Part shown: positions 6,909 to 50,424 of the stretch, one piece after another
Numbering within the stretch: position 1 is the first letter of the stretch
Layout: every line of letters starts with the position of its first letter
IMG/VR virus record: IMGVR_UViG_3300043256_000274
Coordinates: 12,411 to 76,410 of that record
DNA: 64,000 bases
Direction: 5' to 3' (one strand)
DNA from: a virus
Program-made: the position numbers and the translations under genes
Notes under the pieces: model-generated
The model's input: the letters and a program-made list of their open reading frames with translations, nothing else
Database searches by the model: none
What the model was told of the DNA's origin: nothing

Positions 6909-7095
6909 CATTCGGCTGTTTTGCATTCGGCCCTCATTCGGCTGTCTCGGCTTTTTTTTCGACCTCCCCCGGGTCACTTTTTTTAGACCCCCCGGGTGCC
7001 GATTTTCATTCGGCTGTCCAGCCCTCCCCCGGCCGTGTCCTCAGCGTTCGCTATTCGCGAACAACGAACGAGCTAGATTCATTCGGCTGTCCGCG
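6909..7095. repeat. Non-coding cluster of five CATTCGGC copies plus T8/C-run/CCCGGG blocks
   Basis: Copies near 6909, 6925, 6935, 7007 and 7080. Confidence 0.8.
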
Positions 7096-7117
7096 AGTCA
7101 GGCTGCCTGACTCGCGT

Positions 7118-7210
7118 TCACAGGGAGATGAGGACTTCGAGGACCACCAGGGCGATGAAGCCCAGGCCCCACAGAATCCAGCGCTTCTTGACCTGTGGAT
7201 GGATGTTCAT
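7118..7210 (-). CDS. Small membrane peptide (30 aa, MNIHPQVKKRWILWGLG...)
   Basis: ATG lies within a GCCGAATGA junction; hydrophobic C-terminus. Confidence 0.5.
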   Translation of the reverse strand: MNIHPQVKKRWILWGLGFIALVVLEVLISL

Positions 7211-7296
7211 TCGGCTGTCTCCTTGAATCGTTGCCAAGCTGTCCAGATGGACAGTAACGCTTGGACGCTCACAATAGTCAGAATATACCAGATCAT
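7207..7296 (-). CDS. Small membrane peptide (29 aa, MIWYILTIVSVQALLSIWTAWQRFKETAE)
   Basis: Manual translation; starts and ends in GCCGAATGA junctions; AAGGAG precedes the next start. Confidence 0.55.
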   Translation of the reverse strand: MIWYILTIVSVQALLSIWTAWQRFKETAE

Positions 7297-7640
7297 TCGG
7301 CTTCTTCGTCGATCGGCCATCTCGGCATGTGCATGTAACCGATCGTGAGATCCAGCGCTTCGTCGCGAGAGACACCGTCCTGCACACAGAACTCACGGAA
7401 CACCGCTGCGATCAGTGGGACGTAGTGAGTGGTCACGGCCTTCTGCGCCTGGTCGAGCGCAGCAACATCTAGATGTCGTAGTTTCATCATGGTCGGCAAG
7501 GGGGTAAGGGGGGTCATGTAGATAGGTGTGGGTATCGGTCTCGGCACTCCAACCATGAGTGCCTCGGTCGCGTTGATCTTCTTCCAGGTGTGCCCTCGGT
7601 ACTCGAATTGGTCACCGACGATCAGGTCTTGGAAAATCAC
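7293..7640 (-). CDS. Hypothetical protein
   Basis: 115 aa coupled ORF. Confidence 0.55.
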   Translation of the reverse strand: MIFQDLIVGDQFEYRGHTWKKINATEALMVGVPRPIPTPIYMTPLTPLPTMMKLRHLDVAALDQAQKAVTTHYVPLIAAVFREFCVQDGVSRDEALDLTIGYMHMPRWPIDEEAE

Positions 7641-7900
7641 AGCGAGCTATAAAACCTTTCGATGATCGCAGCCACAGCGACCAAGCACTCGGAGTCCCCG
7701 TCCAAAGCCTGTTGTGCAACGTACGGATCCAACTGTGGTCCCTCCCGCTCTCCGCTTCGTAGAGCAAAACAGGTTGTCCGGTCTCCGCGGTCGATGTCCC
7801 CACGTTGTCTCTCGGTGCGCATGATGCGTGCGTAGATGGTGACGTTGTAAAGCCTGCCGACCTCACGCTCGCCGATACAAAACTCACGTCTCACGTCCAC
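7637..7900 (-). CDS. Hypothetical protein
   Basis: Coupled ORF. Confidence 0.5.
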   Translation of the reverse strand: MDVRREFCIGEREVGRLYNVTIYARIMRTERQRGDIDRGDRTTCFALRSGEREGPQLDPYVAQQALDGDSECLVAVAAIIERFYSSL

Positions 7901-8427
7901 ACCGCCAGCAGAGAGTCATTCGGCTTCCCGAAGAACGAGCACACGTCAACCCTTTCGGCTCCCATCTGACATAAGTCAAGCGTATCGAGCGGGAAGACGT
8001 GGGTGCGGTCGATCTCCTTCACGTAGTCGGCGCCTAGCTCACCAATGTTCGGTGTGGTGGCGATAAAGACTCCGGCCACATACGTCACGTCGACCACGAA
8101 CAAGTAGGGATCGTGCAGGTGCTCCAGCAATTCGATGGCCACGACGAAATCGAAGTTCACCCGAGGAAGCCATCTCTTCTCGAAGTCCGTTCCGTCGATC
8201 GACGCATCGACCGGCAGGTAGCGTCCCTTCCAGCCGCGCACGGTGCGCAGGTAGAAGTCGAAGTCACATGCTCCGGCGCCGAGATCCGCCAGGATCGAGG
8301 AATCGTCCATCCCCTGGGCAAAGAGCTCATCGGCCACCGCGGCGTATCGCAGGAACCGATACTCCAGCGTGCCTGTCCGCTCGCCCAGGTAGTCGAGAGC
8401 TTCCTGTCGTCTATTGGTCATTGTCAT
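7891..8427 (-). CDS. Class I SAM-dependent methyltransferase-like protein
   Basis: ILADLGAGACD (motif I), FDFVVAIELLEHL, TTPN. Confidence 0.75.
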   Translation of the reverse strand: MTMTNRRQEALDYLGERTGTLEYRFLRYAAVADELFAQGMDDSSILADLGAGACDFDFYLRTVRGWKGRYLPVDASIDGTDFEKRWLPRVNFDFVVAIELLEHLHDPYLFVVDVTYVAGVFIATTPNIGELGADYVKEIDRTHVFPLDTLDLCQMGAERVDVCSFFGKPNDSLLAVWT

Positions 8428-8642
8428 TCGGCTGGTCTTTCAGGTAGTGGCGCTCGTTCACCGTGGACGATGTAGTGAGCGCTGAATGCGGACATGAGCT
8501 CCTCGCCACCTTCGATCATTACAGCGAGTGTAGCCAGGCGGATCTTGTTCTGACAGCCGCGACGCCATACAGCGTTGTCGTCGCTCATCCGATAGTACCA
8601 GTCGAAGCACTTGAGTTGATCGTAGAACTGCGCGAGCGTCAT
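8424..8642 (-). CDS. Hypothetical protein
   Basis: DWYYRMSDD segment; coupled on both sides. Confidence 0.6.
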   Translation of the reverse strand: MTLAQFYDQLKCFDWYYRMSDDNAVWRRGCQNKIRLATLAVMIEGGEELMSAFSAHYIVHGERAPLPERPAE

Positions 8643-8968
8643 ATCAGCTCCAGCACTTCACCGACCACCACATCACGGTGGACGATGACTTTGAAGGGAG
8701 TCGGGTATTTCCCTCCACCGTTCATAGCGATGGCTTCCACGACCGTGTTCGCCACCCCGTTCTCAATGACCATGATGAGTGTCTGTGGACGAGCGTCCCT
8801 CGTCTGCGGATGGTTGGTCACCCCCATATACACCATCCGCTGTTCAGTGCCCCGGAGGATCGTCAACCGCCGGACGTCATCCTTCCACGTCTCGCCCGCG
8901 AGGATCACCCAGCCAACCAAGTCAGCCATCGAGTCAGCGACCCACTCACCTTGTTCTTTGCGCATCAT
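8639..8968 (-). CDS. Hypothetical protein
   Basis: Start placed just downstream of the repeated promoter motif. Confidence 0.55.
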   Translation of the reverse strand: MMRKEQGEWVADSMADLVGWVILAGETWKDDVRRLTILRGTEQRMVYMGVTNHPQTRDARPQTLIMVIENGVANTVVEAIAMNGGGKYPTPFKVIVHRDVVVGEVLELI

Positions 8969-8976
8969 GATGACAT

Positions 8977-9007
8977 AGTGTATCGGACAATGCAGCCCCA
9001 GGCTGGA
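8977..9007 (-). promoter_or_regulatory. Repeated promoter-like motif TCCAGCCTG-N6-CATTGTCCGATACACT
   Basis: Near-identical copy with the same spacing at 16597-16627; resembles a sigma28-type TCAAG...CCGATA promoter. Confidence 0.6.
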
Positions 9008-9058
9008 TCTTTTCTGAGATTTTGGTAGTAGGGAGGGAGACAGCTCCCTCCCCATTTC

Positions 9059-9478
9059 CTACGCCTTGTCGGCGCGTGACATCTCTGCGCAGCCGACCAT
9101 CACCACTCGCACGTCAGCGCCGGCCTGCATGAACAGCCGCGAGTCGTCGTTTTCAGACTGCAGGTTCCGAAACCCGAGGATGCCCAGGATCGGCCGTACC
9201 GCGAACACATCGGGCGCGTCGATGAACTCACCCAGAACGCGGTGCTTGGTGACGCCGCCGTCGTTCGAGAAGAAAACGACCAAGCTACGGTCTCCACCCG
9301 GCAATCCCGGATCTGGGCGAGACGAAGAGATCAATACCTGCTCGATGATGACTCTGTTATCGATGTCGGTTTTGATCGGAGTCGAGTAGTCTATCCACGA
9401 GAACTCAACCTCGACAGGATTGATCTCGTCTTTCGGAACTTCTGCGCGGAATGAAAGAATGACTTTCTGAAAGCTCAT
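9059..9478 (-). CDS. Hypothetical protein
   Basis: 139 aa, AAAGGA RBS. Confidence 0.6.
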   Translation of the reverse strand: MSFQKVILSFRAEVPKDEINPVEVEFSWIDYSTPIKTDIDNRVIIEQVLISSSRPDPGLPGGDRSLVVFFSNDGGVTKHRVLGEFIDAPDVFAVRPILGILGFRNLQSENDDSRLFMQAGADVRVVMVGCAEMSRADKA

Positions 9479-9535
9479 TGGTTTCCTTTTTCTGAGGTAT
9501 TAGAGATTCGGCCCTTTTGCCGAACCCCGTGCGAA

Positions 9536-9922
9536 TTATACCGGCCTCCGTCGCCGGCGTGACACCCAAACCGGGCCGAAGTAGAACGAATTGGCCTTCC
9601 AGCGCTTGTCGCGCTCATAGCCAAACAGCCACCGCCGCGGGTTCCACCCGCACGACCAGACTATCCGACTGAGCCCCTCAGTCGGATCACCGATGATGAC
9701 GCGCTGACTGCCCTCGATGCGAGCACAGCACCGCTTGTACTTTTGGCTGCTACCACAGGAGCACAGGCCATTCTGCCCACCGCTGCCTTTCTTCGTGCCC
9801 TTGTAGTGAGCACGTCCGCACCACGGCACACCAAGCGGGGTGGTCGTCCTTGCCACATGGCAGCACGCCAGGCCGGAGAAGGTCGGAAACTGACAAAGAG
9901 AGCCCATGTCACCCATACTCAT
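9536..9922 (-). CDS. SEC-C zinc-binding motif protein
   Basis: CSCGSSQKYKRCC. Confidence 0.65.
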   Translation of the reverse strand: MSMGDMGSLCQFPTFSGLACCHVARTTTPLGVPWCGRAHYKGTKKGSGGQNGLCSCGSSQKYKRCCARIEGSQRVIIGDPTEGLSRIVWSCGWNPRRWLFGYERDKRWKANSFYFGPVWVSRRRRRPV

Positions 9923-10257
9923 TCGGCTCCTCCCTTCGCGATGTGTGCGAGCTCCGTCGCCCACTTCGCGACGTAGGCCCACTGATCCGGCTTGACGTAG
10001 GCACAATCGCGTTCCGCTTGCTCCAGGATGCGAGCGATGGAGCCGGTGAGTTCCCAGCACCGACTCGAATCATGGAGGTTCCTGGGCGTGGCGCCCAGAG
10101 GTACATGCTCGGCTGTCTCGCCGCGGTCTCGAGGCGTGCCCATGAGGTTCTCGAACCGCGCCGCAAGCGTATCGCGACGGTCGGCCCATTCCAACACCGC
10201 TTCGGGTGTGTCGTTCTCCCGGAGTTGCTCCAGGGCTTCTCTGAGTGAACCGCTCAC
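9919..10257 (-). CDS. Hypothetical protein
   Basis: Coupled ORF. Confidence 0.55.
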   Translation of the reverse strand: MSGSLREALEQLRENDTPEAVLEWADRRDTLAARFENLMGTPRDRGETAEHVPLGATPRNLHDSSRCWELTGSIARILEQAERDCAYVKPDQWAYVAKWATELAHIAKGGAE

Positions 10258-10598
10258 GGTAGCTCCACGCCAAGGTACTTCGAGACAATCCGACGCATGT
10301 CGGCCAGGTGATCCTTGAGGCCGGCGACCTCGCCTTCATGGCCCCACTTCGACGGACGCGCGCCCTCGATCCACATTCGGCTCATGAGCTCTTCGGTCTG
10401 ATCGGGCTTGAGGAGCACGGTAGGTGAGCGGTACTCGCCCTGCGATGTTTCCGTCCAGCCCGTGTGCTCATTGAGGAATTGCTGTCGGTGAGTGCTGGGC
10501 GACCAACGGCTGATCCAGATGCCGTACCCGTTTGAGTCGTGCAGGTAGCCAGCCGAGACTCGGATCTCCCAGTCGTGCGGGTCAAGTTTGTCGATCAT
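10254..10598 (-). CDS. Hypothetical protein
   Basis: Start MIDKLD; HLADMRRIV C-terminus. Confidence 0.55.
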   Translation of the reverse strand: MIDKLDPHDWEIRVSAGYLHDSNGYGIWISRWSPSTHRQQFLNEHTGWTETSQGEYRSPTVLLKPDQTEELMSRMWIEGARPSKWGHEGEVAGLKDHLADMRRIVSKYLGVELP

Positions 10599-10731
10599 TT
10601 CCCAGTCCTCTTTCGGCCCATCTCCCAGGCTATTCGGCCCTTGAGCCAGCGCCGTAGCTTCTCGCTCGTACAGATGGTGAGCGCGAAGTGGGAGGTTATC
10701 TTGCCCTTGCGGACGTTGCGTTGAATGCCCA

Positions 10732-11430
10732 TTAGCAATCACATTCCTTTTCGTCGTTGCGCCAGTTTTCAAGGTAGTCGGCGCAGTAGTCGTCGAGCCA
10801 GACCAGTGACTCCTGCAGCGGGCCGATCTGTTTCTTCTCCAGGTTCGACCCTCGGAACTCATCATCCTCGGAGAAGCGCCCACCCACGGTGTTGTAGGTG
10901 CTGAGTTTACAGATGCGCTCTAAGAGCCAATGCAATCGTCTTTCGGCTTTGCACTTCTCGGCCTCAGCTTCCTTCACCATGGAGTCTTTCATGGTGTAGC
11001 GACTGATCGAGCGTAATTCCTCACGTTTCGGTTCCGCTTTGTCGAGGTTGGCGTTGGCAATTGCCACACGCCGGTCGGCGTGGGCAGTCGCATCCTCTTC
11101 GGTGTAGAAGAGCGTCTCTTCGCAGTACACGGAGCCTGACCCCACGCCAGTCTCGGTACACATATAGGCGACCTGCTCACTGGGCTTCCTCGCCGTGTCG
11201 GTTTGCACGGAACCGATAGTGAGCTCGCGAACGTAGGCTTGGTAGTTACGCAGGCCGAGAGTCTTTCGGCCGCGACATCGAGGACATTCGACGTCGCCTT
11301 CTTCGCCACCGGGCGACTGCCAGGACCAGACGCCGGTACCCAGGCAGTCGGGACATGGCATCTTCTCGGTGCCGTCTATGTTCGAGCGGCCAAGCCACAC
11401 TTTCTGTCCGATGTAGTAGATGGGGTTCAA
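10732..11430 (-). CDS. Protein with a DnaJ-type zinc finger
   Basis: CPDCLGTG and CPRCRGR; TTG start overlaps the ligase stop. Confidence 0.6.
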   Translation of the reverse strand: MNPIYYIGQKVWLGRSNIDGTEKMPCPDCLGTGVWSWQSPGGEEGDVECPRCRGRKTLGLRNYQAYVRELTIGSVQTDTARKPSEQVAYMCTETGVGSGSVYCEETLFYTEEDATAHADRRVAIANANLDKAEPKREELRSISRYTMKDSMVKEAEAEKCKAERRLHWLLERICKLSTYNTVGGRFSEDDEFRGSNLEKKQIGPLQESLVWLDDYCADYLENWRNDEKECDC

Positions 11431-12383
11431 AAGAGATCCTCCGCGAGTGCTTTCGTTGCCAGGACCACGCGGCCCTGTAGTCGTTTGAAGTCGATGGTAG
11501 CATTCTTGTGCTTCTTGAGGATGGCCCACATCTCCTCGTCGATGAGGTCGTGGAAGACGCGGCCGAGGAGTTGAGGAATGACCTTGTTGCGGTGTTCGGC
11601 TTCGATCTGCTGCTGCCAGTTGTTCTCCAGGCCGTCGATTCCATTGAAGACCTCGTTCGCGATATCAAGCACGACTTTCGCCCGCGTCTTCCCGACGAGC
11701 TCGGCCGTCACGAACTCCTCGGCGATGGCGACCTCGACTTGGAACTCGCCGTGCTTCTGCGCGTGCCCAAACGCACGCGCAGCCTCTTCCTTGAAGACGT
11801 TGCGAACGACCTTGGCCCATGGCGAACCAGCGGTTCGCCATGTGTAATTCTTCAGCACGACGCCCTCACCGAGGCCTGCGCCCTCCGCGATCAGGTAGGT
11901 GTTGGTCTCCACTTGCGCCTTCAACTGCTCCTCAGAGGGATCTTGGATGGTGCAGAGGGGCTCGATGATGTCCAGTCCCTCTAGGACTTGAGAGTAGTGA
12001 TCGTACGGGACGTAGGTCCCCTCGACTCGATCGTAGACGTCGAAGATCCAGAACTTCCGCCAGACCTCCTCGCGATAGGTCTTGAGCGTGTGCGGCACCA
12101 TCCACTTGCCGTAGATGATCCAGTTAGGGTTGGCCGCGCACTCATCCCGCAGGGCTGTCGCCACCAGATCGTCGCTCATGACCCACGCAGCGAAGCCGGC
12201 GTTATCGTCGTCGGGTGTAATCTGGCGCCTACGCGATGCGCAGCGCATCGCGTCGCCGTCCCACCAAACTGAGGAGTTCGTCCCGTCCAGCTTAGGAAAT
12301 ACATGGACGAGCCCCATGTCGATGCCCTGGACGTTGCGATGCCCGAGGCGCTCCAGGTGGTCGTACTTCCGGAACTTAGTCAT
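11427..12383 (-). CDS. ATP-dependent RNA ligase (Rnl2-like)
   Basis: KLDGTN (motif I), SRRR, FWIFDV, EGVVLK, WAKVV. Confidence 0.8.
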   Translation of the reverse strand: MTKFRKYDHLERLGHRNVQGIDMGLVHVFPKLDGTNSSVWWDGDAMRCASRRRQITPDDDNAGFAAWVMSDDLVATALRDECAANPNWIIYGKWMVPHTLKTYREEVWRKFWIFDVYDRVEGTYVPYDHYSQVLEGLDIIEPLCTIQDPSEEQLKAQVETNTYLIAEGAGLGEGVVLKNYTWRTAGSPWAKVVRNVFKEEAARAFGHAQKHGEFQVEVAIAEEFVTAELVGKTRAKVVLDIANEVFNGIDGLENNWQQQIEAEHRNKVIPQLLGRVFHDLIDEEMWAILKKHKNATIDFKRLQGRVVLATKALAEDLF

Positions 12384-12861
12384 TTCGGCTCTTTCGTCCA
12401 AGGATGTAGTCGGGGCGACGCTGGGCGTTGGGGGGACAGACGGCGAGGATGCGCCAGCCGTTCGATAGCTCATCCTGCAGCGTATCAGTGCAGGCGTCTT
12501 GCAGGTAGGTGACTTCGTCGATCAGCAGCAATCCAAGGTCCGGAATCGAAATCTGCACAGCGCAGTCCGCCGCCACTGCCTGCTCTGTGCTCTTATACTC
12601 GCTGAACTTATTGGACAACTGATCCTGCAGCCTGACGATCATCGTGCCCGTCTCACTGACCAGTGTGTCCTTGTCAATGGTGAATTCAATCTCCAACTTA
12701 TGGAGAGCCTGAATCTCTTCGATGCCACCCCAGAAAAGGCTGGCGTACTTCGGCTTGTCACCCTCGGGGAGTTGCGGAATGACCTCGCGCAGAGTGTCGT
12801 ACTTCTCCTGCGGGAGTTCCTCCCACTTCCCCCAGGAGTGAATGCTGATAGGTAGGTGCAT
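12376..12861 (-). CDS. Hypothetical protein
   Basis: LQDELSNGWRILAVC...QRRPDYILGR C-terminus. Confidence 0.6.
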   Translation of the reverse strand: MHLPISIHSWGKWEELPQEKYDTLREVIPQLPEGDKPKYASLFWGGIEEIQALHKLEIEFTIDKDTLVSETGTMIVRLQDQLSNKFSEYKSTEQAVAADCAVQISIPDLGLLLIDEVTYLQDACTDTLQDELSNGWRILAVCPPNAQRRPDYILGRKSRND

Positions 12862-13316
12862 TACTGAGTCAGGACTTTCAGTAGTTCGATCTTGGCTCGG
12901 GTGTGTTTCTTCCAAGTCTCACCACCGGACTGCATGGTGAGCAAGTTGTGTCGGATGTCGGCCAGCTTTACCCGCTGGGCTATGGTCGACGTTGCGATGA
13001 TTCGTGCGACGTACTCGGGGTACTCCTCGCCGGCATCCTTGCGCCGAGTCATCGCGACGAGGGCGACAGCTTCTTCCTCCATGAGAGTCATGCGTGCCTC
13101 ATGAAGGTAGAGCGAAGTTCCATGTAGCTCGGCTTCTGTGTCTTCCAGGACGTCGTGCAGCACTCCGACGATCTGTGTTGGCTCTCCGTACTCCTGTAGG
13201 GCAGCAGCCACAGCGAGCGGGTGTGTGATGTAAGGCTCGCCCTTCCATCGGAATTGATGCTCATGGGCAATAGCCGCGAATGCGATGGCCGAAGCAAGTC
13301 GTTGCTGGTTCTTCAT
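12861..13316 (-). CDS. HD-domain (p)ppGpp hydrolase-like protein (Mesh1/SAH type)
   Basis: AHEHQFR..GEPYITHP, LHDVLEDT, VKLADIRHN. Confidence 0.85.
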   Translation of the reverse strand: MKNQQRLASAIAFAAIAHEHQFRWKGEPYITHPLAVAAALQEYGEPTQIVGVLHDVLEDTEAELHGTSLYLHEARMTLMEEEAVALVAMTRRKDAGEEYPEYVARIIATSTIAQRVKLADIRHNLLTMQSGGETWKKHTRAKIELLKVLTQ

Positions 13317-14515
13317 CCCTTCACGCACACGATCTGCCTCAATTCAGTGACGATCTCGACCAGGTCTTCCTGGTTCTTCATCACCGTGTCGATGTCCTTG
13401 TACGCGGCCGGGATCTCATCGACCACGCCCGCGTCCTTGCGGCAGTCAACGCCGACGGTCTGCGCAGCCAGATCGTCGGCGGTAAACCGATGCTTCGCTT
13501 CCGTCCTACTCATTCGGCGGCCGGCCCCGTGGGAACAAGACTCGAACGAGTCCTTGTTCCCACGTCCCCTCACGATGAATGACCGGGTGCCCATGCTACC
13601 CGGGATGATCCCGAGCTCACCTTCGCGAGCCGAGATGGCACCTTTGCGCGTGAGAATCACATTCGCTCCGAAGTGGTTCTCACGCGAAACGTAATTGTGG
13701 TGGCAGTTGGTCCCTCCCGCGACGACCTTCATCTGGGGGAAATAGTGCTCGACTTCGGCGAGCACTATCTTCATCATCGCCTCGCGGTTCGCCAGCGCGT
13801 AGGACTGGGCCCAGGAAACAGCTTCGATGTAATCATCGAAGTCGCTCTCGCCTTCTGCAAAGAACGCGAGATCCTTGTCAGGCAGCGTGATGAAGTAGCG
13901 CTCCATGAGCTCCTTCGCCCGAGAGATGAAGTAGTCGGCGATGACCTTGCCAATGTTGCGCGATCCGCTGTGCAGCATGATCCACACCGACCCTTCGAGG
14001 TCGAGACAGATTTCGATGAAGTGATTCCCGCCCCCCAAGGTGCCAAGCTGCGAGTTCAGGTGTGCCGGCGACTTCCAGCGGATCTTCGGATGCTTCTGGA
14101 TGATCGGCTCCCAGGTGCGGTGGAGCGCGGCGAGATCGGCGAGCGGCTCGCCTCTCTTGCCGCGAGGCATATCCTCATGGCTGTTGAAGCCTACGGGGAC
14201 GCTGCGCTCGATAGCGCAGCGTACCCGTCCCATGTTGTCAGGGAGATCCATTGTGTTCAGGTTCGTCTTCACGGCCATCATCCCACAGCCGATGTCGACG
14301 CCAACCGCGGCGGGAATCACCGCACGCTTCGCGGCGATTACGCTCCCAACCGTCGCACCCATCCCCCAATGCACGTCGGGCATCGCCGCGATGTGCTTGT
14401 GAATGAACGGCATGGCAGCGAGGTTTCGGAGCTGCTGCAGCGCCGAATCCTCGATGTCCTCAGTCCAAATCTTGATGGCCGTACCATCGGTCGGCGGTAG
14501 AACAAGTGCAGGCAT
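13313..14515 (-). CDS. rtcB: RNA-splicing ligase RtcB
   Basis: MPDVHWG, VGVDIGCGM, GTLGGGNHF, HSGSR, HHNY, SHGAGR, DEIPAAYK. Confidence 0.95.
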   Translation of the reverse strand: MPALVLPPTDGTAIKIWTEDIEDSALQQLRNLAAMPFIHKHIAAMPDVHWGMGATVGSVIAAKRAVIPAAVGVDIGCGMMAVKTNLNTMDLPDNMGRVRCAIERSVPVGFNSHEDMPRGKRGEPLADLAALHRTWEPIIQKHPKIRWKSPAHLNSQLGTLGGGNHFIEICLDLEGSVWIMLHSGSRNIGKVIADYFISRAKELMERYFITLPDKDLAFFAEGESDFDDYIEAVSWAQSYALANREAMMKIVLAEVEHYFPQMKVVAGGTNCHHNYVSRENHFGANVILTRKGAISAREGELGIIPGSMGTRSFIVRGRGNKDSFESCSHGAGRRMSRTEAKHRFTADDLAAQTVGVDCRKDAGVVDEIPAAYKDIDTVMKNQEDLVEIVTELRQIVCVKG

Positions 14516-14892
14516 CAGGCTTTCTTTCCGTGCTTGAAGGGTCGGGTCTTGTTGTATTCGTGCTTGACCAGCGCCGCGGTACCGAGGTCAATGCCTCGAG
14601 CCCCGCAGTAGTCGGCCAGGCGCAGGAAGATGTCGGCGCACTCTTCCTCTTCGCAGGTCAAGTCGGGGCACTTTGCGGAGGGCTCATCCGGCCCTCTTCG
14701 AACACACTCGATGACCTCGGCGACCTCGCAGGTAATCAGACCCAGCTTGGCGACCAGGCCCATCGGGGTGTAGCACTCCTCACTCCAGAAACCATTCTTG
14801 ACCACGAGCTCATGGGCGTTGCTCACGACTCGCGCGATGGCGTCGATGAATTGCTTGCCCGATGCCTGTGGTTGTCCGGCTGGTCTTCTCAT
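14515..14892 (-). CDS. MazG-like nucleotide pyrophosphohydrolase
   Basis: EVAEVIE...EECADIFLRLAD...KHEYNKTRPFKHGKK. Confidence 0.8.
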   Translation of the reverse strand: MRRPAGQPQASGKQFIDAIARVVSNAHELVVKNGFWSEECYTPMGLVAKLGLITCEVAEVIECVRRGPDEPSAKCPDLTCEEEECADIFLRLADYCGARGIDLGTAALVKHEYNKTRPFKHGKKA

Positions 14893-16590: not shown

Positions 16591-16596
16591 AATGAC

Positions 16597-17716: not shown

Positions 17717-17718
17717 GG

Positions 17719-18966: not shown

Positions 18967-18969
18967 CTG

Positions 18970-19290: not shown

Positions 19291-19294
19291 GGGA

Positions 19295-41257: not shown

Positions 41258-41258
41258 T

Positions 41259-42101: not shown

Positions 42102-42166
42102 GGTTGGCTTACCTCTTCGTAGTTGACAGTTTGTTGACTCGCGGGATTGAAGGCTCCCGCCGTGGC

Positions 42167-42751: not shown

Positions 42752-42798
42752 AGGTTCTCCTGAGAGGGGTGTGAGTATGCAGAATCCTACCACATGGT

Positions 42799-44274
42799 TC
42801 AGATCCAGGCGCGTATTTCGTCACCTTGGACGAAGGCAGCCATTTCGTGCTTCTTGCGAAGGACGTCGATGATCGCGGTGTCCACGGTGTCGACGGCTGC
42901 GAGGTCGATGATGTGGACCGGATCGGTCTGGCCGATCCGGTGGAACCTGTCTTCGCTCTGAATCCGTCGAGACAAGCGGTAACCATTGTTGTAGTAGATC
43001 ATCGTCTTCGCGCACGTCAGGGTGAGTCCTTCGCTTCCCTTCGCAGGGTTCGCGACGAACACCTGAGCATCGCCCGCTTTGAAAGAATCAACGGCTTCGC
43101 CCATCTGGGTTTCGTTGCACTGGCCATCATAGCGGACTGCAGCGATTTTCGCGTCCCGAAGGGCCGCGAGAATCGCTGTAATATCCTGCCTGTACTTCGC
43201 CCACACGATGACCTGATGTCCGGCTTCTTCCACACACTCCAGGAGTAGTTCCACGCGTAGGTTACGGTCTCCCAGCGGGATGAGACTCTCGTCATCGTCG
43301 GACGGAAGATACCCCGAGGTTATCTGTTGCAGTCTGAGTATCCGTGTGATAGCCAGATCGGTCGACAACATTTCGCCGGAGTCCAGGATCGTGAAGTGCT
43401 GCGCCTGGAGATCCTTGTACGCTCGCCACTGCGCCGGTGTCATATCGAAGTAGCGCTTCGAGTACAGCTTCGGCGGCAGGTCAAGTACGTCCTCCTTGCG
43501 CAGCCGGGATCCGTAGCGAGCGACGATCCTCTTGAGCAGGTCAAGATTCCGGTACTCGACGAGCATAGGGAACTCACGCTCCTTGACCTTGCCTTCCTTG
43601 TCCGTGTAAAGCATGCTCTGTTTCTTCCAGATGCCGAACGTGTTCTTGAATGCACCGAAGTCGCTACAGCCGATCTCGAACCACACGGTAGGATCAAGGA
43701 ACCTAATCTGGTTGTAGACGTCGAACGGCTTGTCATCAACGATGGTGCCAGTAAGGATGCGGCGGTACGGGCACGCCTTACTGGAGCCAGAGATCCGCAT
43801 GGACCTCTTCGAGCCAGGGGTCTTGATCCTGGGCGACTCGTCAAGCGCGTACATGCACGGTCGGCTATCCATGTAGGCCTTCCAGAACGACCGGCCCAGC
43901 TTCGTCATGACCGCGTCGTAGCTCATGCACACGATGGAGAAGCCGTCGTAGTCAAGGACTGCCTGCGCAGCCGCCCTGTGAGCGAGCGTGCTGGCCTTTG
44001 ACGTCTGCCACAGGAAGACCTTCGTGCGCTCTTGGAGCTCGTCAGGGAGGTGCTGAGGAATTTGATCAACGACCCAATTTCTGTGGACCCCATTGGGCGC
44101 CAGCACCATCAGGCCGCGGATCGCACCAGTCTGCTCGAGATGCGCCGCCTCGTTGAGGATCGGCCACGTCTTGCCCACGCCTGGCTCCCACAGCAGGCCC
44201 CAGGCAGGGGTCTCCTTGTGGGCGTTGAACTCTTCTAGCTGGTGGGCGAACGGACTCGTTTTGAACTCAATCAT
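42799..44274 (-). CDS. SNF2/DEAD-like SF2 helicase
   Basis: PGVGKT, DES, LTGT, GLTLT, QSEDRFHRIGQ. Confidence 0.92.
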   Translation of the reverse strand: MIEFKTSPFAHQLEEFNAHKETPAWGLLWEPGVGKTWPILNEAAHLEQTGAIRGLMVLAPNGVHRNWVVDQIPQHLPDELQERTKVFLWQTSKASTLAHRAAAQAVLDYDGFSIVCMSYDAVMTKLGRSFWKAYMDSRPCMYALDESPRIKTPGSKRSMRISGSSKACPYRRILTGTIVDDKPFDVYNQIRFLDPTVWFEIGCSDFGAFKNTFGIWKKQSMLYTDKEGKVKEREFPMLVEYRNLDLLKRIVARYGSRLRKEDVLDLPPKLYSKRYFDMTPAQWRAYKDLQAQHFTILDSGEMLSTDLAITRILRLQQITSGYLPSDDDESLIPLGDRNLRVELLLECVEEAGHQVIVWAKYRQDITAILAALRDAKIAAVRYDGQCNETQMGEAVDSFKAGDAQVFVANPAKGSEGLTLTCAKTMIYYNNGYRLSRRIQSEDRFHRIGQTDPVHIIDLAAVDTVDTAIIDVLRKKHEMAAFVQGDEIRAWI

Positions 44275-44275
44275 T

Positions 44276-44431
44276 CTACGAGAATGATACACTCACTTGA
44301 GGACGAGTTCCTCCACAGCCCTTACAGACAACTCCATCATGACCCGCGAGCGGCGGCTCTACGTCATCAGGGTCATTCTTGTAGGGGCAATCGGGACTAT
44401 GACGAACGGACGAGGGTGATTCAGTAGTCAT
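44276..44431 (-). CDS. Small Cys/His protein
   Basis: Leaderless ATG after the promoter; HSPDC and CKGC. Confidence 0.4.
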   Translation of the reverse strand: MTTESPSSVRHSPDCPYKNDPDDVEPPLAGHDGVVCKGCGGTRPQVSVSFS

Positions 44432-44437
44432 GCACTC

Positions 44438-44466
44438 ACCATAAAGGAAGATCCTGGAGGGGTCAA
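44438..44466 (-). promoter_or_regulatory. Sigma70-type promoter heading the replication module
   Basis: TTGACC-N17-TATGGT immediately after the terminator. Confidence 0.65.
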
Positions 44467-44469
44467 GGC

Positions 44470-44503
44470 AAAAAGAAAGGTCCCCGTCCGGAGACGGGGA
44501 CCT
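44470..44503 (-). terminator. Intrinsic terminator ending the structural operon
   Basis: 11-bp stem AGGTCCCCGTC/GACGGGGACCT followed by TTCTTTTT. Confidence 0.85.
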
Positions 44504-44566
44504 AGTCACCCCATGAAGAACGAGGAGTCGGCTCGTCCCGCAAGGCCTGATCGTAGCAGGAGGGCG

Positions 44567-44869
44567 CTAGGAGAGCAAGGACTTGACCCCAAGCCACGCG
44601 ACGCCCAGGAGGGCAGCGACCAAGAGGCCGACCATGGTGAGCAGGGTCTTCTTCTTGACGGACTCGGACATGAGCCGCAACTCGCGGACGAACTGCATGT
44701 CCCGCTGCACGTCCATCGGGTTCCGGGCGTCGATGCCCAGGGTGGACATCGCCTCCACGACCGCGTCGTGCATCAGCTCGCGCAGCTCCTCTCGGCCGAG
44801 GACGTCCCCGTTCGCGATAGAATCGCTCACGGCTTCGCGAATCAGGTCTTTCAGCTCTTCCGGTTCCAT
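44567..44869 (-). CDS. Membrane protein, possible holin
   Basis: Single C-terminal TM helix; last gene of the tail operon. Confidence 0.45.
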   Translation of the reverse strand: MEPEELKDLIREAVSDSIANGDVLGREELRELMHDAVVEAMSTLGIDARNPMDVQRDMQFVRELRLMSESVKKKTLLTMVGLLVAALLGVAWLGVKSLLS

Positions 44870-47841
44870 CAGACGAATAGGATCCCCCAGGCATCGGTGC
44901 CCGCTCCTGGTGCCAGCATCTCAATGTGAGTGACGTGGTTGGAGTCGGTGCTGGTGTGCTGGATCCTAATGGTATCAGAAACGGACAGGCTTCCGGTAGA
45001 CCCTGTGGTTCCTCCCTGCGCGATGAGAGTGGTGAAGCCGGCCCCGTTGATGCTGATTTCCACATCGCCGGTCGTGGCGAAGGCCGTCCCAATCGTGAAG
45101 TTGTGGACGCCGGCCGCGTCGACCGTGTAGGTGGCCGAAATCTCGGGCGTGCCGTCCAGGTCCCCGAACTCGAAGTCGCCCGTCAGTGAGCTCGTCACGT
45201 CATAGTCGTGGATGAGCTGCTGTCGAGACAACAAGCCGGTGTCGCCACTCTCATCGTGGACCGCATCGAACACGACCCGGAGCCTGGTCGGCAGGGTGCC
45301 GACGTTCTCATGCAGGATCGTGGTTCGGTTCTGATCGTTGGACGCGCCGGTGAGACCGTCATCGCTGTGCAGGAGCATGTTGCTGCCCTGCGGGTCCTCG
45401 CGTAGCTCCATGTCGTGCGTCGTGTTGTTCGCCGCGGGGAAGCTGGCGTCGAGAGTCTCAGCGTCTACGGTCAACGGAGGGATCTCGTCCTCTCCGTTGC
45501 CTATCCGGTAGTCCCGGCGAATGAAGTCGATCGCGAAGCCCACGCCGTCGAGGCCGGAGCCCTGTTGCTCCAGGGCGACCGTCGTGGCGAAGCGTGTCAC
45601 TCCGATGGTGGTCTCGCTGGGGCAGTATGGACGCCGGTTGCGGCGGTCCATGGTGAACGCGATCTGCGTCGCCGTGGACTCCAAGACCTGGTCGGTCAGA
45701 GAGAACGGCAGCATCTTGAGATGGACGTTGTTCGTCTCGGGGATCGGACCGCCCCCACCACCCTCGATGAGGAAGACCTGGTCGCCGGCAGCGAACGCCT
45801 GTTGCGCCGTGTCGAGCACGCCTCGGTACACGGTCTGCATGTCCACGTTGGATCCGCCGTTGACGACAGCCGACGTGACGAGCATGAATTCGCCGTCGTT
45901 CGTACCATCCCACACGTAGATCAGGTTGAGGAGATCCGTGCCGATGCGATCGGCTGACGGCGGGTCACCCGTGACGTCATCATCGAACTGCTCGAACCGG
46001 CTGATCAGATCAGCCTGGGCGTCCGGCGTGTTCGTGATCGTGATGGTCGTCGTCGGGCTGGTCTGGCCTTCGATCAGGGCAGCGTTGAGTTCGCCGATCA
46101 GGGAGAATCCAAACGACTCTCCTGCGATGGCGAAGTTGCCCGAGGGGGTGCCCGAGGAGTGGCGCTCAACGATCTTGTAGCCGACCTCTACGCTGCGGTG
46201 TCGGCCGGAGCCGTGGATCAGGGCCGGGAACCCGACATGGTCCGGGTTGCGAGCCACGAAGCCTCTCGGCGCCTCGAAGCCGACCTGTTCGGCTGCTAGG
46301 AACGGCAGCAGGTTGTCATCATCGTCGGTCCAGCCGGTGCCCCCGTCCGCGCCGCCACTGCCGACTTGGAAGAAGAACACGTCCTGGACGCAGTCGAGTG
46401 TGATCTGGTTATTCTCCAAGTCGCCCAGATCCACGCGCGTCACGCGCATGGGTAGCTTGGTCAGGCCGAACTTCGCACTGGTGAACGCGAACACGTCGAC
46501 CGGATTCGTGTCCCAGAAGGTCCGGTCCACGATGAACGTAGCCTTCGCCAGCGGATAGCTCAGAGTGCGCAGAATACGCCAAGCGATGTCGTTCGCTATG
46601 GCTGCGTCCTTCACACCAGGCACATTGACAGTCGTCGAGACGTTGACCCCATCCTGCAGACGAATGTTCGCCGAGTCTTGAGCAAGCCCGAAGGTACCCT
46701 GGTACTCGTTCGCACGGTTGAAGAACTTGGTCCGAACAATGTTGGTCGTGTCGTCCCAGGAGCCTCTTGTGAATTCTTTGATCTTTATGATGTTGGACTC
46801 GGAGAGGACTGTCAGGTCGTTGAGGGTATAGTCGGCTCGAGCTAGGGCTATCTCCCACTGAGATGTGGTCTGGTTGAAAAAGACCTTGCCGCTCATCTGT
46901 TGCTCAATCAACTCGATCAGGTCAAGCGCCTTCATCTGACGATCTAGGAGAAAGCTGAATCCATTGTTCTCGGTCGCAAGGGTCGCTGCAGCATCTTTGA
47001 ACGACGTTATATTGATCTTCGCGACCGGCTGGCCCAGACCCCAATCCGTATCCGTGAAGATTTCGTAGAGGACGTTCGCTAGGTTGGCATCGTTGCCTCC
47101 ATTGAGCTCGGCCTCACCTACGACTAGGCCGAGACCGTTCGGGAGACGCCGTAGCTCGAACTTCCAAGGCTTGATCGACGCGCTATTGCCAACGTAGACC
47201 GGACTGGTGTTACTTGTCAGATAGCAAGTTCCGCGGTAGGCCGGCGTCTCGCCGCCCTCTTTCTGAAACTTAGACAGGTACGTCGACGCGGTCTGCGTCT
47301 CGCTACCCTCAAAGAAGCGTAGTGTGCCTTGAACGCCACCGTTGCCTAGGTCATCTCCTCCGAAGAGATTCGGCTTATTGATAGTCAGTGTAGTGTCATG
47401 GGTAACGCTACCACTGAAAACTTGATCATCACCGATCCAGATGCGCAGAAGTTCGTCCACCACGCCGCGGCAGAAGGCAAACTGGATGCCGACCTTGTAT
47501 TTGAATCCCTTGGTGATCGTCTCGCTCGACCAGAGGCCAGTTTTGATCTTCTCGCGAATGGCCTCTTGGCGAAGGTCACCATACCAAACGACGTTCGGCC
47601 CCTTGACCTGTACCGTGCCCCACAGCAAAGGTACGATTCGGTCCTGGGTCGCAGTCGGGAACTGGAAGTCACCCAACCCCGCGGGCTTGGCGTTCTCCAG
47701 ATCCGGCTTCGGGCGCAGCAGCTCGCTCAAGACGAAAAGCACTATGTAGATCAGCAGTGTGATCCAGAACCCACCCCTGGCTTTTGCCTCGGGGTCGTGC
47801 TGCCAACGGATTTGTGCTTTCTGAAACTTAGTGAGCTTCAT
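44869..47841 (-). CDS. Tail tip / host specificity protein (J-like)
   Basis: FQFPTA..RIVPLLWGT..GPNVVWYGD, PAYRG, MRVTRVD. Confidence 0.85.
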   Translation of the reverse strand: MKLTKFQKAQIRWQHDPEAKARGGFWITLLIYIVLFVLSELLRPKPDLENAKPAGLGDFQFPTATQDRIVPLLWGTVQVKGPNVVWYGDLRQEAIREKIKTGLWSSETITKGFKYKVGIQFAFCRGVVDELLRIWIGDDQVFSGSVTHDTTLTINKPNLFGGDDLGNGGVQGTLRFFEGSETQTASTYLSKFQKEGGETPAYRGTCYLTSNTSPVYVGNSASIKPWKFELRRLPNGLGLVVGEAELNGGNDANLANVLYEIFTDTDWGLGQPVAKINITSFKDAAATLATENNGFSFLLDRQMKALDLIELIEQQMSGKVFFNQTTSQWEIALARADYTLNDLTVLSESNIIKIKEFTRGSWDDTTNIVRTKFFNRANEYQGTFGLAQDSANIRLQDGVNVSTTVNVPGVKDAAIANDIAWRILRTLSYPLAKATFIVDRTFWDTNPVDVFAFTSAKFGLTKLPMRVTRVDLGDLENNQITLDCVQDVFFFQVGSGGADGGTGWTDDDDNLLPFLAAEQVGFEAPRGFVARNPDHVGFPALIHGSGRHRSVEVGYKIVERHSSGTPSGNFAIAGESFGFSLIGELNAALIEGQTSPTTTITITNTPDAQADLISRFEQFDDDVTGDPPSADRIGTDLLNLIYVWDGTNDGEFMLVTSAVVNGGSNVDMQTVYRGVLDTAQQAFAAGDQVFLIEGGGGGPIPETNNVHLKMLPFSLTDQVLESTATQIAFTMDRRNRRPYCPSETTIGVTRFATTVALEQQGSGLDGVGFAIDFIRRDYRIGNGEDEIPPLTVDAETLDASFPAANNTTHDMELREDPQGSNMLLHSDDGLTGASNDQNRTTILHENVGTLPTRLRVVFDAVHDESGDTGLLSRQQLIHDYDVTSSLTGDFEFGDLDGTPEISATYTVDAAGVHNFTIGTAFATTGDVEISINGAGFTTLIAQGGTTGSTGSLSVSDTIRIQHTSTDSNHVTHIEMLAPGAGTDAWGILFV

Positions 47842-47842
47842 T

Positions 47843-48685
47843 TCAGATCAGTCCGTTCTCGAAGATGTTCCGGTTGGGGACGAAGAAGAAGCCACCGTAG
47901 TTGATCACATTCGACGTCACGACTTCCGGCGTGAAGAACTTGGTGTCGCAGGTCGCGATGGTGTGGTCACAGCCAGCCAGAACTACGACCGTCTCGCCTA
48001 CGAGGTCGAATGGGAATGGTAGCAAAAGCTGGAGAGACGTGCCCGTGTGGGACAGAATCAATCGCGCATCAGCGCCACCTTGGGCCTCAACGAATCCCTG
48101 TGTCCAGAAGCCATCGACTTCACCATCTGCCCCCTGGACCGTAATCGTTTCGTCCACGACCGTGAGGACCGTGCCACTGAGTCGGAACGTGGTGTCCGTG
48201 TCGTCAACCTTGCAGCCCGAGTCGTAGAGGACATGGTTGCACAGGCCTTGGTAGGTGAATCGTGGGATCGACCGCGACGTGGCCGAAGAGATTGGCTGCG
48301 TGGCGATTCGCGCAATATGGCCGTCTTCTTCGAACTTGACACTGACAACAAAGCCTTCGTACAGGGTAATTACCTCCGGCCCAGGGAAGTCAGGACGTTG
48401 CACGCGCTTGACCACGATTCGAGCACGGCTCCCAGGCACCACCGCAATATAGCGACGCGCGAACTCGTTCTCGCCGTCCGTTGTGAAGATGACCAGGTTC
48501 TCGCGATCTTCTGGGCTCTGGCTGATCTTGCTACGGATCATCGGCTCCGGGTCATAGGTGACGGTCTCGACTACCTGTTGATCCTCAGACGGCGTGTATT
48601 CGAACGTCTCGGCTCCTAGGAAGAAACGGAAGACCTCGATCGGTTGTGAGCTCTCGATGCTCTCTTCGAACTGTGCGAAGGTCAT
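47843..48685 (-). CDS. Tail hub protein, BR0599 family
   Basis: CNHVLYDSGC, AGCDHTIATC..KF, NYGGF..VP..N.F. Confidence 0.85.
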   Translation of the reverse strand: MTFAQFEESIESSQPIEVFRFFLGAETFEYTPSEDQQVVETVTYDPEPMIRSKISQSPEDRENLVIFTTDGENEFARRYIAVVPGSRARIVVKRVQRPDFPGPEVITLYEGFVVSVKFEEDGHIARIATQPISSATSRSIPRFTYQGLCNHVLYDSGCKVDDTDTTFRLSGTVLTVVDETITVQGADGEVDGFWTQGFVEAQGGADARLILSHTGTSLQLLLPFPFDLVGETVVVLAGCDHTIATCDTKFFTPEVVTSNVINYGGFFFVPNRNIFENGLI

Positions 48686-50424
48686 TCGAGCACCGTCTTG
48701 ACCGGGCCGGTTACGCGCGTCATGGTTCCACGCTCATGTCGAATGGTGATCTCGTCAGAATCCCAACGGACTTTCTCGACGAACATGATCCGTTCCACGG
48801 TAGCTTGGGTGTGGACGCCCAGGGCAGAGTCGAGTGTCAGCGTTTCGCGAGTGCTGTCCACGACAGCCGCGCTCACGACATCGCGGAGGTCATCTGGACT
48901 GCCATCATTGTAGACAATCCGGATGCTGTCCCTGGGCTGTCGGGCCTGGACGAACTGTGCGTAGCCGGCATTGGCCACGTTGAGGATGACACCCGCAGCG
49001 ATGTCCGAGTCGATGACCATGTCATCGCAGAACGTCGAAGAATAGAAGCTGATCTGTTTGCCGCGGAGAGCGTGCAATAGGCCGCGGACTTCCCAGAGTG
49101 CTTGCTTGCCCTTCGCCAAGAGAGCAAGCTGCGAGATGCGCTTGCTCACATCCCACGGGGACGACTGCGCGGTCAAGCCAATCGGGTTATCCATCAGGAC
49201 AATATCCCGTTCGGACTGTTCGGCCGTCGAGCCCCGCACATTGTTGCAGCCGTCGATCAGCACCTTACTTTTGTAGGTACTGAATGCGCTCGTATCAGCC
49301 AGGTCCACGTCGTTGTCCCCAACCCGGAACTCCAGCTTGGCTCGAGCCACACCAGAAACGAATCGGCTACCTTGGATCACACGCCTGGCGAACCCGGTGC
49401 GCAGCGGCATGACCAACGTGCCAGCGGCATAGGTGCTAAGTACGCCCGAGGCACATACAAGGGACGTCGGTGTGGTGCTGGACAGCTCCAGCACATCGAA
49501 GGTGTTCCGGTTGCTGAACACTAGAACTAGACCGCCGATTCGGTAGTCCGCGAAATCCGTGGACTGCACGATCAGCGTGGAGTCATTGACTGCCAGCGGG
49601 GTCGTTAGCCGGGTGAGCTCGTCCCAGATGGGAAGGCCGAAGGTCCGTGCCTGCCAGTCGAAGAGGATGTTGTGGAAGAAGGACCGCTCGATGCCATCGT
49701 CCTCCCAGATGAAGTCCCAAGAGAAAAGTTGACGAGGGTTCTTTCTCGCACTGATGCGCAACTCCGTTCCGTCGACGTGAGGTTCGACTTCGGTGAGCCA
49801 CTGCAGACGTTCCGTGAAGGGAAGCTCCGGCTGAATCGAGAAGAGGACGACTCGGTTCAGCTCAATCGGTACATTGATCGTCTTGGGGATCGTGCCAAAG
49901 ACGAAGTCTAGGGTCGAGTCAACCACTGGCTGCCCGTTGGTCGAGACCTCAAGCGTCAGAGTCAGACCACCATCTGATTGTGGCACGAAGGTGTGATCAA
50001 ACGTCGGTAGGCCGAGAAGAGTCACGCCGGCACCGGCGTTGTTGACGAAGGCTGTCCAGTCGTGATCGGTTCGCCGGAACGCGCTGTAGACTTCGAGCGG
50101 AGCGCTCTGATTCGACAGGATGTTACCGAAGTCGAAGTCACGCGGGATAATCGTGAAACATTCCCACCAGGTCTCGAACCCGACTGCCGCTTGCTCTCCC
50201 AAGAGGCCGTTGCTGCGCTCGATGATCGGCGGAGTGACCTTGCCCACACCGCCGACGATCGTAGATTCGACGAACGGATGGTCCTGACTCACCGCCAATG
50301 GATCGTCAACAGTCAGAGTGTTCACGGGTCGCAAGTTGGCGTAGACAGCAGCCCTACGCCCCGGCGTACCACCGAAGATCACGGTGGGGGGCGCGAACAC
50401 CAAACCATTGTCCCTTACGACCAT
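48682..50424 (-). CDS. Minor tail protein (distal-tail-like)
   Basis: ERLQWLTEV...E.R.S.R.NPR; position after the tape measure. Confidence 0.7.
   Translation of the reverse strand: MVVRDNGLVFAPPTVIFGGTPGRRAAVYANLRPVNTLTVDDPLAVSQDHPFVESTIVGGVGKVTPPIIERSNGLLGEQAAVGFETWWECFTIIPRDFDFGNILSNQSAPLEVYSAFRRTDHDWTAFVNNAGAGVTLLGLPTFDHTFVPQSDGGLTLTLEVSTNGQPVVDSTLDFVFGTIPKTINVPIELNRVVLFSIQPELPFTERLQWLTEVEPHVDGTELRISARKNPRQLFSWDFIWEDDGIERSFFHNILFDWQARTFGLPIWDELTRLTTPLAVNDSTLIVQSTDFADYRIGGLVLVFSNRNTFDVLELSSTTPTSLVCASGVLSTYAAGTLVMPLRTGFARRVIQGSRFVSGVARAKLEFRVGDNDVDLADTSAFSTYKSKVLIDGCNNVRGSTAEQSERDIVLMDNPIGLTAQSSPWDVSKRISQLALLAKGKQALWEVRGLLHALRGKQISFYSSTFCDDMVIDSDIAAGVILNVANAGYAQFVQARQPRDSIRIVYNDGSPDDLRDVVSAAVVDSTRETLTLDSALGVHTQATVERIMFVEKVRWDSDEITIRHERGTMTRVTGPVKTVLE

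Follow-up and report, generated by a model that had tools for sequence, protein, structure and literature searches.

The word AGCCGAA(T) is under selection as nucleic acid in the genome of a phage represented by IMG/VR record IMGVR_UViG_3300043256_000274, in coding as well as non-coding DNA and synonymous sites included, and this selection is shown to act on the sense strand of genes that all point the same way and form a block of ~58 kb, about three quarters of the genome. The window analysed here, a stretch of 64,000 nucleotides (positions 12,411 to 76,410 of the record), makes up most of one contig of 76,410 bp, 12.4 kb of which precede it. Every gene lies on the minus strand of the window, and transcription order follows falling window coordinates; the gene model comes from crude in-house gene calling. 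An earlier note on this DNA had drawn attention to GCCGAATGA, used both as a stop/start junction between genes and in a non-coding array. This motif turns out to be the longest version of a word with AGCCGAA(T) as its core that the genome carries in a strand-specific manner. Tentatively, we read the word as a polar signal in the DNA, comparable to Chi, that is recognised by an enzyme translocating along it, and this is the mechanism to which we commit; the distribution of the word works most like the Chi clusters of phages LLS and MD8, which are the nearest precedent.

A one-strand word in coding and non-coding DNA

Over the whole contig, AGCCGAA is present 43 times on the gene strand versus 3 times on the other strand. 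Dinucleotide shuffling predicts ~4.6 copies per strand in the window and codon shuffling 11.3 (z about 12-13). Against codon shuffling, the strongest outliers among 6-, 7- and 8-mers are AGCCGA, AGCCGAA and AGCCGAAT, respectively (z 10-13), and AGCCGAAT is the commonest (tied) of 35,364 gene-strand octamers, with 20:0 copies between the strands. The background measured in 56 unrelated phage loci of similar GC content is 0.11/kb on the sense strand, with a ratio of 1.4:1 between strands. As for the long form, the 12 exact copies of GCCGAATGA all lie on the minus (gene) strand, where 0.97 are expected from dinucleotide shuffles, none of 100 of which reaches 12. Codon shuffling yields 4.6 copies when the four exact non-coding array copies are held fixed, and the genes themselves contain ~8 copies, compared to ~0.6 expected from codon shuffling within genes.

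The counts of AGCCGA in the three reading frames are 11, 30 and 47, where 3.9, 10.1 and 12.7 are expected; the excess is thus ~3-fold in each frame, so that no dipeptide or codon-pair effect is at work. Altogether, ~30 core copies (32 AGCCGAA versus ~6 expected) are located inside genes, in all frames. The base that precedes in-frame GCC-GAA is an A in 51% of cases, compared to 11.7% over all third positions (P = 6e-10), and no such A excess is seen ahead of GCC-GAC. A scan of all single changes indicates that the centre, GCCGA, is strict and the outer positions are tolerant, with RGCCGAD as the consensus. Note that a second word, CACCTAC, is also skewed toward the gene strand (18:2, z about 5); a single frame (x-Thr-Tyr) accounts for 13 of the 18 copies and the word therefore probably reflects a dipeptide, protein or codon-pair effect.

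A density gradient ending in a non-coding array

The density of the word climbs toward one locus, finishes in a five-copy non-coding array and then stays at background for 19 kb (Table 1). When the map is treated as a circle cut just past the array, a cut point picked after the data were seen, 16 of the 20 AGCCGAAT octamers fall in the last fifth (Kolmogorov–Smirnov p = 3.7e-9). The word-free zone (1..6900) continues through the 12.4 kb before the window and contains the clamp operon, two tRNA genes and the genes for the large terminase and the portal. Junction copies and gene-internal copies show the same gradient, the ATGA overlaps that bear the word being 4 out of 8 in the dense zone versus 1 out of ~17 in the sparse zone. 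A PolA-like open reading frame (ORF) of 453 aa contains five AGCCGAA and the 111-aa ORF just upstream contains one, in three different frames. The densest coding cluster is region 14889-16590, with five AGCCGAAT at 15033, 15163, 15805, 16053 and 16491; the Pfam DNA_pol_A match of the PolA-like ORF covers residues 348-382 only.

The array belongs to a non-coding stretch (6679..7117, minus strand), in which there are, besides the array, several hairpins, tracts of A7 and A8, and another repeat, CCCGGGGG(A)GG. The earlier description of five copies in non-coding DNA holds, with four exact copies and one variant, GGGCCGAATGC, within 6679-7117: the ORFs found there score 0.03, -0.31 and -0.12 per codon, versus 0.22 +/- 0.09 for genes. 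This second repeat is present in three copies (6953-6984 and 6960-7040, minus strand), two of which are each followed by an A7 or A8 tract; seen from the opposite strand, they take the shape of hairpins with T runs, as in terminators. An Rfam search of the array returned no match.

A proposed Chi-like reading of the word

Under the Chi-like reading, an enzyme moving along DNA would read the word, at which a helicase-nuclease would stop degrading the DNA and turn to protection or recombination. The point of entry would be a DNA end, either a packaging cut or a rolling-circle tail, located just beyond the array, near window position 6.7-6.9 kb, and the enzyme would meet the word from the 3' side, the array first and a falling density thereafter. 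As a word of this kind would be short and fully functional, the reading explains the selection of 7-8-mers inside genes.

The precedent comes from two lambdoid phages, LLS on E. coli and MD8 on P. aeruginosa, in which Chi is biased toward one strand (20:3 in LLS; 32:0 in MD8, where it is the commonest octamer) and clustered at one end (Genome Res 2025, PMC12315714). The phage studied here shares several features with them, namely, a commonest octamer with all or nearly all copies on one strand (20:0 here), a density that goes up toward one map end, the position of the word on the strand whose 3' end faces the dense end (as Chi does with respect to the right end of LLS and lambda), and, as far as the ~60 proteins scanned here go, no recognised recombination module. 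Regarding the last point, neither a recombinase nor an anti-RecBCD family was found among these ~60 proteins, many ORFs being without known relatives. Unlike in LLS and MD8, the densest copies here form a non-coding array with identity over 12-14 nt, and five copies are embedded in ATGA overlaps; moreover, the packaging genes look headful rather than cos.

Several points, in addition to the choice of the cut point, weigh against a Chi-like signal. First, the word differs from each of six known Chi words, and neither known Chi words nor KOPS show polarity in the phage. Known Chi words are G-rich, and AGCCGAA(T) is not. Second, AGCCGAAT reaches at most ~0.05/kb in 406 bacterial genomes (401 of them taken evenly from one phylum), versus 0.26/kb in the phage; as the host may fall outside the 406 genomes, this lack of any genome with a host-level abundance is weak evidence. 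Likewise, bacterial dnaN loci are not rich in the word. Third, the Terminase_6C, the Mu-like portal and a Mu F-like protein suggest headful packaging without a fixed end, and the large terminase gene lies 10 kb from the array. Fourth, the array copies are identical over 12-14 nt (GACAGCCGAATGAA), ATGA included although it is untranslated there; no known Chi is that long, and a site at which a protein or an RNA docks is closer to what the copies look like. Finally, as all genes lie on one strand, reading at the DNA level and reading at the RNA level are inseparable by sequence.

The word at gene junctions

The earlier note had placed GCCGAATGA at ATGA stop/start overlaps at 7207, 7293, 8424, 9919 and 29474 and at the start of ThyX (ATG at 17388), and had listed variants at 12383, 21590, 34173, 35771, 38398, 38891 and 48685. 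All these coordinates proved correct, and the 29-aa ORF (7207-7296) does carry a motif copy at both ends; two of the five junctions hinge on this ORF being a real gene, and its coding score is low. Two internal copies were absent from that list, one at 7916 in a methyltransferase-like gene and one at 13510 in RtcB. The real start ATG is part of six exact 10-mers, those of ThyX (whose product starts with MKILDHG and matches Pfam Thy1), the dCMP-deaminase-like protein (so labelled after visual inspection of its translation, which shows HAE and PCxxC motifs), the methyltransferase-like protein, the SEC-C protein and two peptides, and three forms longer by one A are located at further starts.

GCC-GAA precedes 5 of the 28 ATGA junctions, where 0.025 are expected (P = 5.5e-11), and the enrichment persists when the last codon is required to be GAA (5 of 9 ATGA junctions, P = 6e-6). 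These figures refute an origin by chance or codon usage, in which Ala-Glu codons and frequent ATGA overlaps would together generate the motif. It is true that GAA is the commonest last codon (13 genes), that GAATGA overlaps are common in other phages and that a Glu is the final residue in 15 of 80 SLOG homologues, but shuffles of either kind do not approach the observed counts. Hence, the part of the earlier inference that saw in the motif a selected nucleic-acid signal, and not a by-product of codon use, is supported, whereas a specific role in translational coupling is not, the core being equally enriched in genes, in all frames.

Why, then, do junctions carry the word? We infer that NNA-TGA/ATG overlaps are the cheapest sites for writing the 10-nt form. 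Since this form contains TGA, it is possible in one frame solely at a gene end, where its ATG is then the next start; an existing ATGA overlap would therefore be a pre-adapted landing pad, taking the word for the price of turning two C-terminal residues into Ala-Glu. Such cheap writing would explain the use of junctions for any reader, so that a coupling role is not needed. Conversely, the enrichment of the core inside genes, in all frames and far from starts, means that a start-site function cannot account for the core excess.

Possible docking of an expression regulator

It is also possible, and nearly as likely as a Chi-like signal, that an expression regulator of the phage docks at the word, which would then be of the kind represented by start-associated sequences (SAS) or stoperators. 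A protein or an antisense RNA would bind ACAGCCGAAUGA on the mRNA at start codons, in the manner of SAS or T4 RegA, or else a DNA-bound protein would gate transcription, in the manner of Cluster A stoperators; the array would then be a high-affinity operator or a titrating cluster. What speaks for a regulator is the register of the six exact 10-mers and the three one-A-longer forms with real starts, together with the fact that the 10-mers at starts are all on one strand and that the exact 10-12-mers are restricted, in a single orientation reminiscent of SAS, to the non-structural region (6.9-29.5 kb). The array copies share ATGA, and often ATGAARATC too, with gene starts, which they thus resemble. 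The terminator-like hairpins and T runs on the antisense strand of the array (Table 1) also count in favour of a regulator, as does the presence of Ala-Glu-stop in 5 of the 13 closest SLOG homologues (60-69% identical in alignment), the residues before it being different.

The transcription unit next to the array provides a further argument, as it has a start leader of its own. This second leader, GGAACCAACGCCATG, occurs three times (6675-6690, 5273-5288 and 4789-4804), ahead of the clamp gene and of two further genes past the array; sub-words of it (GGAACCAACGCC) show no genome-wide enrichment. A related metagenome contig, L120 (78% identity in the clamp), keeps GGAACCAACGCCATG exactly (1396-1410); the small membrane-protein gene that follows it is the same in both, and a GGGCTAGGYTCTACAGTG box upstream is conserved as well. 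Because the next transcription unit reuses another conserved leader three times, with an exact counterpart in L120, class-specific start words seem to be a habit of this phage lineage.

However, a regulator acting at starts leaves unexplained both the 32 AGCCGAA found in genes, in all frames, and the enrichment in head and tail genes, and 7-nt half-sites should be too weakly bound by a reader of 12-14 nt to be under selection. Furthermore, the word lacks the Shine-Dalgarno core that SAS have, a hairpin shared by the RNA around the word copies was sought and none was consistent, and neither a repressor nor an integrase family was found among the proteins scanned, in a scan that was not exhaustive and left many ORFs without known relatives. 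Among the small genes next to the array, Pfam and PHROGs searches pointed to no candidate for binding DNA or RNA.

Comparison with described start and junction elements

The statement of the earlier note that no described system matches the motif was wrong: SAS (PMC3203893), stoperators (PMC9283540), the PeSL elements of T4-type phages (PMC2839356) and phage Chi clusters (PMC12315714) all come close. In the SAS of Cluster K mycobacteriophages, GGGATAGGAGCCC, which are placed 3-7 bp ahead of the start codon, a Shine-Dalgarno core is included (Pope et al. 2011, PMC3203893); their function is still untested according to a 2025 survey (PMC12699233). Like the word described here, SAS are short asymmetric repeats in one orientation, present in about a dozen copies in the non-structural part of the genome and tied to an ATG, sometimes with the upstream stop inside. 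In contrast, our word is unrelated to them in sequence, has no AGGAG and takes in both the ATG and the TGA that overlaps it; ORFs are nearly free of SAS, whereas the core is enriched there in all frames (two exact and ~30 core copies); and SAS have no counterpart of the non-coding array. The stoperators of Cluster A mycobacteriophages (L5 gp71 type; PMC9283540, PMC6550527) are asymmetric 13-bp sites, numbering more than 20 and mostly located at short gene junctions. They resemble the word in the orientation, which is locked to the direction of transcription, and in the positions at gene junctions. They differ from it in that they require an immunity repressor and a temperate phage (no repressor or integrase was found here, the scan being non-exhaustive), and in that they are intergenic, without gradient or array, whereas our word is written through coding sequence. 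PeSL elements (PMC2839356, PMC4122927) are likewise repeated motifs that flank small accessory genes in a variable region and for which shuffling has been proposed, but they are composites of a promoter and a stem-loop of 50-70 bp, unlike the present word, which is identical over 10-14 nt and has no promoter-like site.

The operators of T4 RegA resemble what a regulator would require here, as one factor acts on several unrelated early or middle genes through a sequence that overlaps their AUG, but they show neither a genome-wide one-strand excess nor an array. RegA sites are A/U-rich and degenerate. As the word fails a defining feature of each of the families defined by sequence, we assigned it to none of them.

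Other possible roles for the array

Nothing hints at an antisense transcript with UCAUUCGGCU copies other than two terminator-like hairpins on the opposite strand, and no gene is read in that direction. It is quite improbable, but conceivable, that the array encodes an antisense RNA running on the opposite strand from ~6880 to 6985 and ending at the two hairpin and T-run sites. The three to five UCAUUCGGCU seeds of such an RNA would pair with the AGCCGAAUGA start regions of at least nine genes and with dozens of core sites on mRNAs, so that one multi-seed RNA would silence a temporal class of messages or mark them for cleavage; this would be the RNA counterpart of the titration by the array that the earlier note had envisaged.

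The array might alternatively be a replication origin, the five copies being iterons for the primase-helicase (823 aa) and the scattered cores secondary binding sites or priming sites for the lagging strand. The layout of five direct repeats, A7/A8 tracts and hairpins in non-coding DNA adjoining the clamp gene is suggestive in this respect. Layouts of the P4-alpha kind, in which a primase-helicase goes with octamer iterons, are known, and the mean core spacing, 1.8 kb, is about the size of an Okazaki fragment. Nevertheless, this role is unlikely: the cumulative GC skew of the whole contig turns near window positions 2.6 kb and 15-16 kb, away from the array, a gradient or an abrupt end is not expected of priming sites, known primase recognition sites are 3-5 nt long, and the junction copies in exact ATG register would remain unexplained. 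Note that the GC skew is reversed in the ~2.6-16 kb part compared to the rest of the genome, despite the uniform direction of the genes; this part overlaps the word-dense zone, with different borders.

Relatives and the suggested exchange of gene cassettes

According to another view, in the spirit of PeSL, the word is a short recombination joint: accessory genes would be gained, lost and swapped between copies, recombination would regenerate perfect copies between unrelated flanks, and the array would consist of empty joints. The copies are indeed perfect and their flanks without homology, small genes without known relatives make up the block that contains the array and four junction copies, copies stand at both ends of the 29-aa ORF, and PeSL offer a precedent (PMC2839356, PMC4122927). 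We nonetheless consider this view doubtful at best. A unit of 10-12 nt is far below the 50-70 bp of PeSL and has neither promoter nor stem-loop, no recombinase or homing-endonuclease gene lies nearby, and the copies in RtcB, in the PolA-like ORF and in structural genes, as well as the selection on synonymous sites, are left unexplained. A foreign origin of the genes that follow the word was considered and dropped, as their GC content, GC at third codon positions (GC3) and codon scores, hence their codon usage, are ordinary. Lastly, a relative has an orthologue (78% identical) of the 72-aa gene with the same PAE end, consistent with a stable junction.

In a search for the DNA of relatives, a megablast of 12 kb against phage records found no match; viral contigs scanned with the clamp, a clamp alignment, the primase and a promoter-plus-leader pattern yielded no relative; metagenome contigs yielded only L120, a 2.4-kb piece without the array side; and genome contigs yielded only bacterial clamps, with at most 28% identity. 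The stretch occurs in a single sequencing run, its probable source, and no RNA data set is listed for it; in the contigs of that run, one contig spans the region, the other matches being foreign RtcB fragments, and no variants or joints at the word were seen. At the protein level, related proteins (P0003/P0081, P0079, P0076, P0193 and P0073) are encoded on contigs of 36-75 kb (75,040, 71,138, 56,377, 45,090 and 36,236 bp, respectively; Logan, ENA). The C-termini of the homologues, namely, the Ala-Glu-stop ends of the closest SLOG homologues and the PAE end mentioned above, fit conservation of the junction word in the lineage, as far as proteins can tell; the more distant SLOG homologues from IMG/VR have varied C-terminal ends. 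The YspA/SLOG protein itself (29474-29809; homologues P0072-P0089), encoded upstream of the dCMP-deaminase-like gene, has many relatives with 60-69% identity on phage-sized contigs (36-75 kb), which mark an unsampled clade of related phages.

Scans of IMG/VR for the motif gave single matches at chance level. Arrays of the same 9-mer in a few unrelated contigs, such as L296 (five GCCGAATGAG copies), were also considered and set aside, their number being about that expected by chance among millions of iteron arrays. In L296 (IMG/VR, 70% GC), the locus (780-1030) comprises five irregularly spaced GTGCCGAATGAG copies in non-coding DNA, beside a small membrane-protein gene. In the phage studied here, four genes for single-helix membrane peptides of 29-43 aa (5385-5477, 5145-5276, 7118-7210 and 7207-7296) lie on either side of the array and the clamp gene; L120 has kept two of these four genes.

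Table 1. Copies of the word, density zones and gene order (window coordinates)
Feature	Position	Strand	Remarks
ACAGCCGAATGA	7207..7218	minus	Stop of 29-aa ORF and start of 30-aa membrane peptide gene
AGCCGAATGA	7293..7302	minus	Stop of 115-aa gene (...EEAE) and start of 29-aa ORF
AGCCGAATGA	8424..8433	minus	Stop of 72-aa gene (...RPAE) and start of 178-aa methyltransferase-like gene
AGCCGAATGA	9919..9928	minus	Stop of 112-aa gene and start of 128-aa SEC-C-motif gene
AGCCGAATGA	29474..29483	minus	Stop of YspA/SLOG gene (...VAAE) and start of dCMP-deaminase-like gene
AGCCGAATGA	17385..17394	minus	ThyX start; 14-nt overlap with upstream 113-aa gene, where it is read K-P-N-E
AGCCGAATGA	7916..7925	minus	Inside methyltransferase-like gene, read K-P-N-D; not a start
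GCCGAATGA	13510..13518	minus	Inside RtcB, read R-R-M-S; not a start
AGCCGAAATGA, one A longer	12380..12390	minus	Candidate start of Rnl2-like RNA ligase gene
GCCGAAATGA	21587..21596	minus	Phosphoesterase stop and start of 194-aa gene
Array copy 1, ACAGCCGAATGA	7079..7090	minus	Its ATG begins a 13-codon mini-ORF
Array copy 2, ACAGCCGAATGA	7006..7017	minus	Followed by AAATCGGC; possible pairing with GCCGA into a hairpin with AUG in the loop
Array copy 3, ACAGCCGAATGA	6934..6945	minus	
Array copy 4, variant GGGCCGAATGC	6924..6931	minus	Core GCCGAATG
Array copy 5, ACAGCCGAATGA	6908..6919	minus	Final copy; background word density past it
Palindrome	7092..7116	minus	Perfect 12-bp stem, directly after stop of 30-aa gene; no U run behind
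Two terminator-like hairpins	6940..6985	plus	T8 and T7 runs; antisense strand of the array
Sparse zone	19301..64000	minus	Replication, tail and head genes; 18 AGCCGAA, 0.40/kb, 5.6x dinucleotide null
Dense zone	7121..19300	minus	19 AGCCGAA, all frames, 1.56/kb
Array, 220 bp			4 copies and one variant
Past array, 19.3 kb	6900 down to contig start		2 AGCCGAA, 0.10/kb, equal to background
Head genes, then tail genes		minus	Major head protein, tail proteins; first in transcription order
Replication and nucleotide genes		minus	Next; helicases, ribonucleotide reductase, DNA polymerase, DNA methyltransferases, primase-helicase
ThyX, PolA-like ORF, RtcB, RNA ligase		minus	Next
Block of small genes		minus	Next; without known relatives
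Non-coding stretch, ~430 bp	6679-7117	minus	Next; between last accessory gene and sliding-clamp gene
Sliding-clamp gene and few small genes			Next; closed by canonical terminator at 3391-3418
Two tRNA genes, large terminase (Terminase_6C), Mu-like portal	12.4 kb before window		

Implications

Whatever its reader, the word illustrates how a compact genome can store a DNA word nearly free of charge, by means of ATGA stop/start overlaps and synonymous sites. It follows that a motif found at gene junctions need not act on translation, and that genome-wide one-strand word statistics should come first, before a motif is labelled a start signal or a cassette joint. If the word is a regulator's docking site, it would provide a second, unrelated example of start-associated sequences, 15 years after the first were described without a function. 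If the Chi-like reading is true, AGCCGAA(T) would become a candidate for the word that controls recombination or a nuclease in an uncultured bacterium, learned from the phage ahead of the host itself, and it would extend the recently described loading of one end of a phage genome with the host Chi (PMC12315714) beyond the lambdoid phages of enteric bacteria and Pseudomonas.

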